From a virus (Duplodnaviria > Caudoviricetes), in the IMG/VR virus record IMGVR_UViG_3300046779_000331, positions 1-41,143 of that record: 41,143 nucleotides of DNA; one strand, 5' to 3'. This document shows positions 7,216-17,654 of this stretch, piece after piece. Made by a program: the position numbers and the translations under genes. The notes under the pieces were generated by a model, which was not told the DNA's origin, ran no database searches, and saw only the letters and a list, made by a program, of their open reading frames with translations. The first letter of the stretch is position 1. The number at the start of each line of letters is the position of its first letter.

Positions 7216-7415
7216 AGAAGTTTAAACTATCTGAAAAGCACAAAAAGGCTATCAAGTCCTACCTTCGTGCTGTCGCTGCATCTGCAATCGTTATGGGTGT
7301 AGCCCTACTTACAGATATGGCTCCACAATATGCCATCCTAATCGGTGCAGTTGCTGGTCCAGCCCTTAAATGGGCAGATAAGTCTGAGAAAGACTTCGGA
7401 CTAGGGTCTAAGTAA
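7212..7415 (+). CDS. Putative holin
   Basis: 67 aa, basic N-terminus, two hydrophobic segments, ATGA overlap with the endolysin. Confidence 0.7.
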   Translation: MKKFKLSEKHKKAIKSYLRAVAASAIVMGVALLTDMAPQYAILIGAVAGPALKWADKSEKDFGLGSK

Positions 7416-7452
7416 CCCCTATTTTAGGGGCGTAGCAGCCCCATAGAGACAC

Positions 7453-7506
7453 AAAAGCCCCCGCTCTGGTACTTTAACCTACCAGGCGGGGGTCTTTTTG
7501 CTTTTT
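7453..7506. terminator. Bidirectional intrinsic terminator between the converging arms
   Basis: AAAA-GCCCCCGC.CTGGTA-loop-TACCAG GCGGGGGT-CTTTTTGCTTTTT. Confidence 0.8.
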
Positions 7507-7509
7507 AAT

Positions 7510-7600
7510 TATGGTTAGGTGTAGCCCCGTAACATTGTTCGCTATTAGTACGGGTTCAGGCAAGGGCATGCGCGAACCAACCCTCTACTACACCACCGTA
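7510..7600. ncRNA. Candidate structured RNA: three-way junction with complementary loops
   Basis: GGTGTAG(7518-24)/CTACACC(7588-94); CCCGTA/TACGGG; AGGG/CCCT; loops carry GTTCGC and GCGAAC. Confidence 0.55.
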
Positions 7601-7669
7601 CACGATTGAGAATTGAACTCAAATTTCCACCAGTTAACTGTGGCGTTCTAGCCATTGAACTATCGTGCC
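7598..7669 (-). tRNA. tRNA-like gene with atypical anticodon arm (identity undetermined; no encoded CCA)
   Basis: GGCACGA TA GTTC-AATGGCTA-GAAC G CCACA-GTTAACT-GGTGG AAAT TTGAG-TTCAATT-CTCAA TCGTGTA C: good D and T arms, 1:72 and 31:39 mismatches. Confidence 0.7.
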
Positions 7670-7675
7670 TTTGTA

Positions 7676-7930
7676 CTACTTACGCCTTGCTGTCTTTTTG
7701 ACTGGCTTCTTCTTGACTGCTGTCTTTTTGGCTACTGGCTTGCTATTTTTAGGTGCTGTATGCCAAGAATATTCATAGCGTGGCTCGTCATGTAGTTCTT
7801 TTAGGAACTGGTCTAGTCGCTTGCGCGACTGATGTGCTCTCCACTTTGTAGCAAGAAACTCTGATAGGTCTTTGACTGCATCAGCAACTGCTAGTCCAAT
7901 GAAGACTCCTAGTGCAATTTCTAGTACCAT
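7676..7930 (-). CDS. Membrane-anchored protein with Lys-rich C-terminal tail
   Basis: TAATG coupling to whiB gives start 7930; N-terminal hydrophobic helix; tail KPVAKKTAVKKKPVKKTARRK. Confidence 0.7.
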   Translation of the reverse strand: MVLEIALGVFIGLAVADAVKDLSEFLATKWRAHQSRKRLDQFLKELHDEPRYEYSWHTAPKNSKPVAKKTAVKKKPVKKTARRK

Positions 7931-15189: not shown

Positions 15190-16206
15190 AAGCACTAACT
15201 CTAGTGCTTTGTTCTTGATACCGTCACTGCGTCCGCTAAGGGCGGCAACGGCAAGGCGTTCGGAGCCGCCCGATGCATGGTGGTCTGCATATTCTACAAC
15301 TGCTTGCCATGCACCAAAGGCTGTACCTCTGATGTTGGATTGTGTTTCTGATTCGTTGTATATCTGCCATGCTTTATCGCGTGCAGTTACAGCAATGGTC
15401 TGTTGTCTGCGCTCACCTTGGGTGAGTAGGTGGTATGGCTTATCTTCTACTGTAGAAGGCAACGCCCATACACGCTTGAAGTAATCACGCACTTGTCCTG
15501 CTGATACTTCACGCTTAAGTAGACCGTTTGCTGTCTGCTCATACTCTTCAATTGCTTGGTATGTAAGTTGGGTAATGTTACGAATGTCTTGCACTGACAA
15601 CTCTGAATTAGTTGTGTGCTTCATAACATAAGTGAAGTCGTTTGTCTTCTTGCCTTTAATCAACTTGTTGATTTGATTAGAGCAGAACAAACGCTCAATG
15701 ATAGGGCGAATGCGTACTGCACATGAGCCGTCATGTGATGACTGCACTAGCAGGAATGCAGCGTGTGGGTCATTGGCTACATTTACACCAAGAGGTAGTT
15801 CCATAACCATCCAGATGTTAGCACCTTTATTGTATTCACCTGCTGCTGTGTATCGTGCATCACCTGAATCTACTAGCGTATCTAATGCGCTAAATACTTC
15901 CATGTTTTGCACAATCTTGTATTTGTCACCGACTACACCAATGACTTCATTTGTATTGTCTTTGCCAAGTTTGATTACTGCTTGCTTTTTTGGAACAGGA
16001 TAGTAATCTGTTACTGACTCGAACTCGTTGACTTTATTAGAAACATATGCCTGCATATCTGCAAGCATTACATTCCAGTCAAGTCCAGCCTGTCGTGCAG
16101 CCTCTGATGCAGAGCCAGCGTTGACTGCAACGCCTGCTCTTTTCCAAGCCTGCTTGTTTAGTCTAGTCAGCGATTTGTTATTATATTCTTCCGTTACTTG
16201 CTGCAT
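15184..16206 (-). CDS. DUF932/DUF945-family phage protein
   Basis: AGLDWNV, GVVGDKYKIVQN, SHDGS, RLFCSN, GTAFGAWQAVVEYADH. Confidence 0.85.
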   Translation of the reverse strand: MQQVTEEYNNKSLTRLNKQAWKRAGVAVNAGSASEAARQAGLDWNVMLADMQAYVSNKVNEFESVTDYYPVPKKQAVIKLGKDNTNEVIGVVGDKYKIVQNMEVFSALDTLVDSGDARYTAAGEYNKGANIWMVMELPLGVNVANDPHAAFLLVQSSHDGSCAVRIRPIIERLFCSNQINKLIKGKKTNDFTYVMKHTTNSELSVQDIRNITQLTYQAIEEYEQTANGLLKREVSAGQVRDYFKRVWALPSTVEDKPYHLLTQGERRQQTIAVTARDKAWQIYNESETQSNIRGTAFGAWQAVVEYADHHASGGSERLAVAALSGRSDGIKNKALELVLA

Positions 16207-16577: not shown

Positions 16578-17057
16578 TTAAGCCCTTTCTCCGAAGATGT
16601 TTGCTACTACCTGTGGGTGTAGTTCTTCACGCATACGAGCAAATGACTTAGGGTCCCAGCCTACTTGGAATACACGGCTAAGCAACTTAGCAAGTGAGTA
16701 ACTTGGCTGTGCATTAGTTAGAGTTAAGAATGCATCTCCAGTTCTACCTAGTTCATACTCATACTGAGCAAGCAAGGCTGCAGGTGCATTGATATATGGT
16801 GTATCTGTTACTGCATTGTTGAGTAGATGATTTAGTGCAGCGAGAGTACGCTCTTCGCCATACTTACCAAGAATACCAAGTGCAAAGTCACGCACCTGAA
16901 TGTCAGTTAGATAGTAAAGTACACGAGTAGTCGTGACTTCATCTGTATCTCCTGCTGTAAATGTAGAGAAGAACTCATCTACTAGCGTAGCACCTTTACG
17001 CTGAATGCTAGTATCTTGGTTCTCTTCTAGTGTTTTGTAGTCATCTTTAGTTGTCAT
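16578..17057 (-). CDS. DUF4192-like protein
   Basis: LTDIQVRD, APAALLA..G..A, PSYSLAKLL resemble the actinobacterial DUF4192 C-terminal half. Confidence 0.6.
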   Translation of the reverse strand: MTTKDDYKTLEENQDTSIQRKGATLVDEFFSTFTAGDTDEVTTTRVLYYLTDIQVRDFALGILGKYGEERTLAALNHLLNNAVTDTPYINAPAALLAQYEYELGRTGDAFLTLTNAQPSYSLAKLLSRVFQVGWDPKSFARMREELHPQVVANIFGERA

Positions 17058-17205
17058 TGTTTGTCTCTCCTTCTAGTCGTGTATCTATCCATCGGTGAAT
17101 AGACATTGTTGCACCATACATTTGTATAGCATCTTGCACCCAGAACAAAGCAGCATCATCGTTGTCTGCTTCAACTGAGATTTCTACCTGTACTATGTAG
17201 TTCAT
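17047..17205 (-). CDS. Hypothetical 52-aa protein
   Basis: TAATG coupling to upstream gene. Confidence 0.6.
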   Translation of the reverse strand: MNYIVQVEISVEADNDDAALFWVQDAIQMYGATMSIHRWIDTRLEGETNNDN

Positions 17206-17654
17206 TAGTACCAACCATGCTTTCTCCAGTGTGACCAAGCGATTGAAGGCTTGTCGTATCTATGCTTGATATACGCCAGCCCCTTCTCAATCTGGAGAGG
17301 GGCGGGCGTTCCAGGCTTAGTCTTTAAGACTTGTGCTACTCCGTAGGCTGTTGACTTAGGGTTATCTGCTTTATGATTCCATGCAGATTCTTTTCCCCAT
17401 AGTTTTAGCAGTGCCTTCCACTCGCTGCGTCCCCAATGTGGATACTCCAAAGACATGTAGCCACGTGCATATGTCTTTGACATATACGGTGTCCAGTAGT
17501 GTGGCTTGATAGCCTGCACTACATAGTCTTCGTCTGTTGCTATCTGCTTATCTACATACTTGACATACGATTTGATTGGTATGCCAAACATAGTAGCAAG
17601 TATTAATATACCTGCACTAATGATTGCTTGGTATTTCTTTGCCACTGTGAACAC
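17205..17654 (-). CDS. Secreted or membrane-anchored lysozyme-like transglycosylase (SLT/Apf-like)
   Basis: Hydrophobic N-terminus; KESAWN..A.NP.STAYGVAQ..QIEKGLAYIKHRY..GWY; AGGAGA RBS. Confidence 0.82.
   Translation of the reverse strand: MFTVAKKYQAIISAGILILATMFGIPIKSYVKYVDKQIATDEDYVVQAIKPHYWTPYMSKTYARGYMSLEYPHWGRSEWKALLKLWGKESAWNHKADNPKSTAYGVAQVLKTKPGTPAPLQIEKGLAYIKHRYDKPSIAWSHWRKHGWY

Follow-up and report, generated by a model that had tools for sequence, protein, structure and literature searches.

The purine riboswitch consists of a closing helix and two hairpins, which are joined by a strand of 7-8 nt and meet in a loop-loop contact, and its junction consensus is UUCUAC. Junctions closed by loop-loop contacts also occur in hammerheads, the core of which is CUGANGA and GAAA. 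The 5' domain of the bacterial SRP Alu RNA is a family C junction whose loops form five Watson-Crick pairs in a row, with UGU in the strand that links helices 3 and 4; the Alu domain resembles a tRNA and is modelled at the ribosomal elongation-factor site (PMC4231752). In phage phi29, prohead RNA (pRNA) carries complementary loops on a three-way junction, which pair between molecules (PMC4201828). Further precedents concern the tRNA regions of phages. RNAC and RNAD of phage T4 are small non-tRNA RNAs, of unknown role, from the phage tRNA region (PMC3014915, PMC9697503), and theta ribozymes, which are minimal HDV-like, are reported to start near the 3' end of phage tRNAs (PMC10879173).

The stretch of DNA analyzed here (the window, 41,143 nt) is a complete-length virus record, IMGVR_UViG_3300046779_000331, corresponding to a 41-kb actinophage-type genome with a GC content of 43.6% and genes for terminase, portal, capsid, tail, primase, helicase, a sigma factor and WhiB. 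Its capsid protein is approximately 40% identical to those of Beephvirinae Streptomyces phages, Streptomyces phage Kumquat being the closest cultured relative by this protein (42% identity), and from this similarity we infer an actinobacterial host. The early and replication genes occupy the minus strand and end at 7676, while the structural and lysis-type genes occupy the plus strand and end at 7415. Between the early and the lysis genes a tRNA-like gene, an RNA element and a strong hairpin are found in this order. We consider the element to represent a real, previously uncatalogued family of mobile phage RNAs with a covarying loop-loop pairing and a putative function. The features discussed below are as follows.

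7676..7930, minus strand: final gene ahead of the cassette, encoding a small protein whose N-terminus is hydrophobic and whose tail is Lys-rich, present in relatives without the cassette
7598..7669, minus strand: tRNA-like gene of the tRNA-Glu(UUC) lineage, which also precedes the element in L302, L304 and L307
7512..7597, minus strand: whole element, a three-way-junction RNA of 86 nt in which a 5-bp loop-loop pairing is conserved (folding, homologs, covariation)
7587..7597, minus strand: 5' strand of P1, two G, one unpaired pyrimidine and then 8 bp (covariation)
7562..7585, minus strand: hairpin A, with an invariant GGGU/GCCC stem, a 2x2 internal loop and an invariant G-C pair closing a 6-nt loop
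7572..7576, minus strand: 5-nt kissing strand in loop A (covariation)
7555..7561, minus strand: junction strand of 6-7 nt linking the hairpins, variable apart from its first G
7526..7554, minus strand: hairpin B, with a 5-6 bp stem beside P1 and a 16-17 nt loop (covariation)
7538..7542, minus strand: 5-nt kissing strand in loop B (covariation)
7512..7525, minus strand: 3' strand of P1, internal loop and terminal CC(A), the end helix also capping the insert of L232 and L296
about 7453-7506, strand not assigned: strong hairpin with A and T runs on its flanks (folding z -6.05 and -5.42)

As originally proposed, the element occupies the interval from the tRNA-like gene's 3' end (7598, minus strand) to the strong hairpin. 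The latter would be a terminator working in both directions, with the early operon (minus strand) on one side and the lysis genes (plus strand) on the other; it was absent from the output of a simple terminator scan of the window, and its core is present in 83 viral loci. A small G+C hairpin at 7427-7442 of the window adjoins the terminator hairpin, and a similar stretch occurs in relatives. Regarding the protein encoded at 7676-7930, its Lys-rich tail is histone-like and 11 relatives were collected, while no Pfam domain and no PHROG were found. A search with the single protein returned no relative, and an alignment query gave 4 loci, on contigs already known and all without the cassette. Genes of this type precede most of the inserts in the slot between early and lysis genes (window, L226, L232, L296, L272, L206 and L266), and many others adjoin an empty slot.

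Read on the minus strand, the element comprises two G-C pairs, a small internal loop and the 8-bp P1, followed after 1 nt by hairpin A and, 7 nt further on, by hairpin B, which is placed directly on P1. The closing stem and the two hairpins of the original prediction are present, the stem being 8 bp long on this strand (7594-7587 with 7525-7518), with 2-3 bp added past the small internal loop. The loop of hairpin B contains a conserved C-G pair, and conserved adenines adjoin its kissing strand. This three-way junction was both the minimum-free-energy and the centroid structure of the minus strand (ViennaRNA). The fold of the lone sequence was not significant: for the plus strand folding z was -0.24, for the minus strand -1.14 or -1.67. 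With homologs set aside, the evidence is weak. The complementary motifs GTTCGC and GCGAAC were confirmed at 7537-7542 and 7572-7577 of the plus strand, and in 20,000 trials shuffled loops gave an exact 6-mer complement in 1.0% and a 5-mer complement in 5.7%. There is no promoter-like site adjoining the element. Contigs from 8 runs, with shares of 0.13 or less, did not extend over the element, a result that bears neither on its expression nor on habitat.

Homologs amount to 5 distinct sequences in 3 lineages and are only 56-69% identical. The copy at L226:500-593, with a predicted structure almost identical to that of the window element at approximately 60% sequence identity, was first noticed by eye; a covariance model derived from just the window sequence subsequently ranked it first among 83 loci (E 4e-6, next best 0.01, both rough values) and scored L302 at E 6e-12. 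A pattern consisting of the bases shared by the window and L226, with the kissing bases left free, gave 10 matches in viral sequences, 4 of them real (L302, L303, L304 and L307, L303 being the L226 contig), and the 6 chance matches were dropped uncounted. With a refined pattern 2 of the 28 matches in metagenomes were real (L336 and L337) and the remaining 26, due to chance, were likewise dropped uncounted, while none of the 32 matches in prokaryote genomes was real, the best reaching 18.3 bits. In addition, BLAST against 50,697 annotated phage records did not find the element, returning only the tRNA or chance pieces, and 53 endolysin-neighbour loci contained neither tRNA nor element. Two looser patterns for the loops, applied to viral contigs, were rejected as matching by chance, since none of the 120 loci obtained with the first and none of the 26 obtained with the second was real.

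The collected homologs were examined for covariation, as the original prediction had proposed, and compensatory changes were found both in the stems and in the loop-loop pairs. In a MAFFT alignment (A4), which was not fitted to the model and was used for the kiss, all 25 cells of the loop-loop pairs could pair and 4 of the 5 pairs change on both sides, while sliding the loop partners on the same alignment lowered the pairing to 32-51%. All five changes in loop A are compensated (2 in L302 and 3 in L226), and neither L302 nor L226 had been selected for loop complementarity. In the model-fitted alignment (A5), which leans to the structure, the nested pairs were formed in 105/105 cells with 8/21 changing on both sides, a result reached by none of 500 shuffles; relatedness inflates tests of this type, and the lineages are few. 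RNAalifold returned the same three-way-junction fold. Given these homologs, the predicted structure stands clearly above chance.

Of the 8 pairs in P1, 3 show changes of both partners and 1 a change of a single partner, with no variation in the outer pairs; all 5 pairs of hairpin A are invariant; the 5 pairs of hairpin B comprise 4 that are altered in both partners and 1 that is altered in one. The GGGU/GCCC stem is invariant, and so are the G-C pair that closes loop A, the leading U-A pair of the kiss, the adenines of loop B and the end helix. The long junction strand differs between homologs in both sequence and length. Of the loop complementarity in the original prediction, a kiss of 5 bp and not 6 is conserved: the sixth position is G-A in both L302 and L226, and its G is paired within its own hairpin in all five sequences. 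With respect to the strand, which had been left ambiguous, one-sided changes of the U-G/C-G and U-A/U-G type together with an invariant U-G pair are consistent with the minus strand only, and these G-U pairs and the position of the tRNA lead us to assign the element to the minus strand.

A scan against Rfam 15, which the original prediction had suggested, gave no match over the element at E<=10 (8 matches, none spanning it), only the tRNA was matched in the window at gathering score, and the L226 copy had 0 matches, all consistent with an uncatalogued RNA. Furthermore, no description of the element was found in the literature listings searched, and five short motifs were absent from 6 of the supplementary files of a catalogue of viral structured RNAs (PMC10690425). 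The original prediction of a new phage non-coding RNA released by tRNA processing thus holds as regards a conserved, uncatalogued structure with compensatory changes, while release from a tRNA precursor would be a reading of position, to which we return below. It had also set the element apart from both purine riboswitches and prohead RNA, and the comparisons agree on both counts, the junction consensus of the former being absent and the features of the latter lacking.

The links of the element measure 0-1, 1-3 and 6-7 nt. At these lengths the rule for family C junctions predicts that hairpin B stacks on P1 and that hairpin A lies alongside, so the kiss probably forms within one molecule. The covariation itself fits pairing within or between molecules alike, and a three-way junction bearing complementary loops is the distinguishing mark of phi29 pRNA (PMC4201828), so that a prohead-RNA-like oligomer, joined through the two loops for packaging or for another ring-shaped assembly, has to be considered. 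We regard this as the least probable of the functions weighed here and scarcely to be expected, since pRNA is an essential part of the gp10/gp16 motor of phi29, whereas the window phage has a large terminase and a portal, and the element is accessory, lies 12 kb from the terminase and portal genes in the early operon, is absent from 20/20 near-complete relatives and has no Rfam match.

The layout of the junction is also that of purine riboswitches, and in L226 the corresponding junction strands contain UA and CUA, which could suggest an orphan metabolite-binding aptamer with a riboswitch-like fold acting as a ligand sponge. However, the UUCUAC consensus is absent from all 6 loci, the junction strands are not conserved, the kiss consists of five Watson-Crick pairs, and there is no downstream gene on the same strand, the element being followed at the mapped loci by a terminator-like hairpin and convergent genes. 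An aptamer therefore appears very unlikely. The next gene is convergent in every copy, and thus there is nothing that the element could regulate in cis as a leader.

The closest structural parallel is the SRP Alu 5' domain (helices 2-4; RF01854), which is likewise a three-way junction with five consecutive kissing Watson-Crick pairs. Compared by eye with two SRP loci (L370 and L371), the element shares with them a GGG...GCCC hairpin, a kissing loop beginning with GU, and a second loop that is larger and has adenines ahead of its kissing strand. In contrast, the UGU that follows the first hairpin in SRP Alu is absent from all 6 loci of the element, where the G alone is retained, the junction strand is 6-7 nt long against approximately 4 nt in SRP, and helix 5 and the S domain are lacking, a long closed P1 taking their place. 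RF01854 matched none of the 4 homolog-bearing records, while 7 of the 14 control genomes matched; the covariance model R3 of the element, run on three SRP loci, gave no match at the SRP genes, and profile searches between the element and SRP found no match in either direction. Homology to SRP Alu was thus rejected, there being no model or profile match. We believe that the element resembles SRP Alu in topology only, and that it may work like an Alu domain without being one.

The gene preceding the element has a peculiar form in the window. Its D- and T-loops are intact, the T-stem with 3 compensatory changes, while the anticodon arm is rebuilt (UAA, A31-G39 mismatch and C37); in addition, G1-A72 is mismatched, the variable loop is short and CCA is not encoded. 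ARAGORN labels it Leu(UAA). A functional tRNA-Leu(UAA) has a long variable arm, a purine at 37 and paired 31-39 and 1-72, and this identity was ruled out by the short variable loop, C37 and the A31-G39 and G1-A72 mismatches. As the Leu features are absent, we read the gene as a putative tRNA-shaped processing handle, of which the retained tRNA shape and the loss of normal decoding features would be expected. The derived form precedes the element in the window, L336 and L337, while a regular tRNA-Glu(UUC) does so in L302, L304 and L307. With regard to these genes, the anticodon loop in the window is self-complementary, with a palindromic hexamer within a 10-base palindrome; the tRNA-Glu forms of L302 and L304 have G1-U72 as their first pair; and a conserved hairpin of approximately 30 nt is located directly 5' of the tRNA at L304:243-277 (plus strand), as well as in L307 and L337, and is absent in the window.

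The element starts right behind the base following the tRNA discriminator in 4 of the 5 distinct sequences. The exception is L226, where there is no tRNA and the element begins 4 nt after a stop codon, and hence a tRNA is not required for the element. The release by tRNA processing that had originally been put forward is thus suggested by position in 4/5 sequences and dispensable in the remaining one. Theta ribozymes likewise begin no more than 1 nt from a tRNA 3' end (PMC10879173), and the element could instead be a new ribozyme whose putative self-cleavage would, as in their case, set the tRNA 3' end free. The unpaired bases that are invariant across the homologs and the closure of the junction by a loop-loop contact, as in hammerheads, would fit such an activity. 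Nevertheless, the hammerhead core was found in 0/6 loci, the long junction strand is variable, the 5' end lies about 11 bp from the junction, and L226 has no tRNA to be freed. The nested double pseudoknot with a catalytic cytosine that characterizes theta ribozymes is also not matched, the element being a closed three-way junction with a kiss. On balance we consider a ribozyme doubtful, with an outside chance only.

The distribution of the element is patchy. Among the 83 terminator-core loci, as judged by reading, the slot is empty in 77 and contains inserts in 6, one of which is the element; 11 of 12 WhiB-neighbour loci reach the slot, 0 with a tRNA or element and 3 with another insert. Covariance model R3 found the element in 1/50 related records (the known L226 record) and in 0/20 near-complete related records, and it is absent from Streptomyces phage Kumquat. 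The window and L337 share 99% identity in the tRNA and 96% in the element, while their flanks are 54% and 46% alike, against a shuffle baseline of approximately 50%. Near-identity of the cassette between unrelated flanks indicates that it has moved between phage backbones, and in our reading of these comparisons the element is accessory cargo.

The slot has also been occupied by at least four other types of insert. L232 and L296:530-593 (plus strand) carry a 64-nt rod-like insert with the same end helix and a different interior, for which no Rfam match was found, and this sharing of the end helix around different interiors suggests that the helix is a processing or protection handle, separate from the cargo. 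A different insert of approximately 95 nt is present in the same slot at L206:2478-2575 (plus strand), L208 and L272:499-592 (plus strand; identical to L212). It has a closing stem and a three-way junction with 2 compensated pairs in 2 sequences, its GGGG loop could pair with a CCCC tail as a candidate pseudoknot, and no convincing Rfam match was obtained. Short inserts occur at L266:545-600 (plus strand), which by eye may form an H-type pseudoknot, and in L244 (minus strand), with a 42-nt gap before the terminator. In Kumquat (L374), the tRNA array contains unannotated gaps with tRNA-like T-arm sequences at 16083-16165 and 16628-16714, the first of which looks permuted, and an unannotated, hairpin-rich gap of 244 nt at 17007-17250.

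Rarity, movement between backbones and the variety of inserts in one slot would all be consistent with a selfish or nearly neutral passenger, that is, a structured mobile element spreading by recombination in the slot without benefit to the phage. However, the compensation of a tertiary pairing at 56-69% identity needs selection on the folded RNA, and no mobility gene adjoins the element, so that we consider this explanation quite unlikely. A role in cis has somewhat more in its favour. The fold could stay on the early transcript or on the tRNA precursor and set its stability or processing, as a nuclease roadblock or as an insulator against the convergent transcripts of the lysis genes. The element is always in the last slot of the early operon, before those genes, and the L226 copy follows the stop codon closely; because there is no tRNA in L226, a cis role at the mRNA 3' end may hold equally well for that copy. 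On the other hand, the terminator hairpin already caps this end, nothing occupies the slot in most terminator loci, and the tRNA that accompanies the cassette would be severed from the mRNA. For the family as a whole, a cis element is thus rather unlikely.

We tentatively favour, at somewhat below even chances, an excised small stable RNA, compact and of tRNA size, that would act in trans as a decoy for a host factor linked to translation or targeting tRNAs; the decoy role is drawn from shape and context. The paired 5' and 3' ends and the fixed end helix would suit such an RNA. It would be transcribed by read-through from the early operon, its 5' end arising when the host processes the tRNA 3' end or, for L226, when the transcript is cut directly after the stop codon, and its 3' end by termination followed by trimming up to the terminal helix, to give a stable product of approximately 86 nt. 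In this product the intramolecular kiss would bring hairpin A beside hairpin B, the latter stacked on P1, an arrangement like that of the SRP Alu 5' domain. A partner might then be bound in trans, speculatively as the target of the decoy, with the invariant GGGU/GCCC stem and the terminal internal loop as predicted contact surfaces. RNAC and RNAD of T4 offer a precedent of the same kind, small RNAs from a phage tRNA region; in contrast to them, the element is accompanied by a single tRNA or by none and belongs to an actinophage-type genome of 41 kb, and no sequence link to them emerged from the BLAST search of 50,697 phage records. A bolder version, which we put forward as a long shot, is that of a free-standing, protein-free phage mimic of SRP Alu, which would dock at the elongation-factor site of the host ribosome or titrate a defence protein that binds the tRNA elbow, as swappable cargo of a slot at the early-operon end where several unrelated structured RNAs would share one processing handle.

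The element adds a compact family with covariation support to the few tRNA-linked phage RNAs of unknown role, such as T4 RNAC and RNAD. At 86 nt and with natural compensated variants, it is tractable in vitro with respect to folding, oligomer state, cleavage and partners. Moreover, a single intergenic slot in this phage group appears to gain and lose several structured RNAs in the way that accessory genes are gained and lost. If the element turned out to bind the ribosome in an Alu-like manner, or to act as a new ribozyme, it would represent a new phage route to host translation or tRNA processing.
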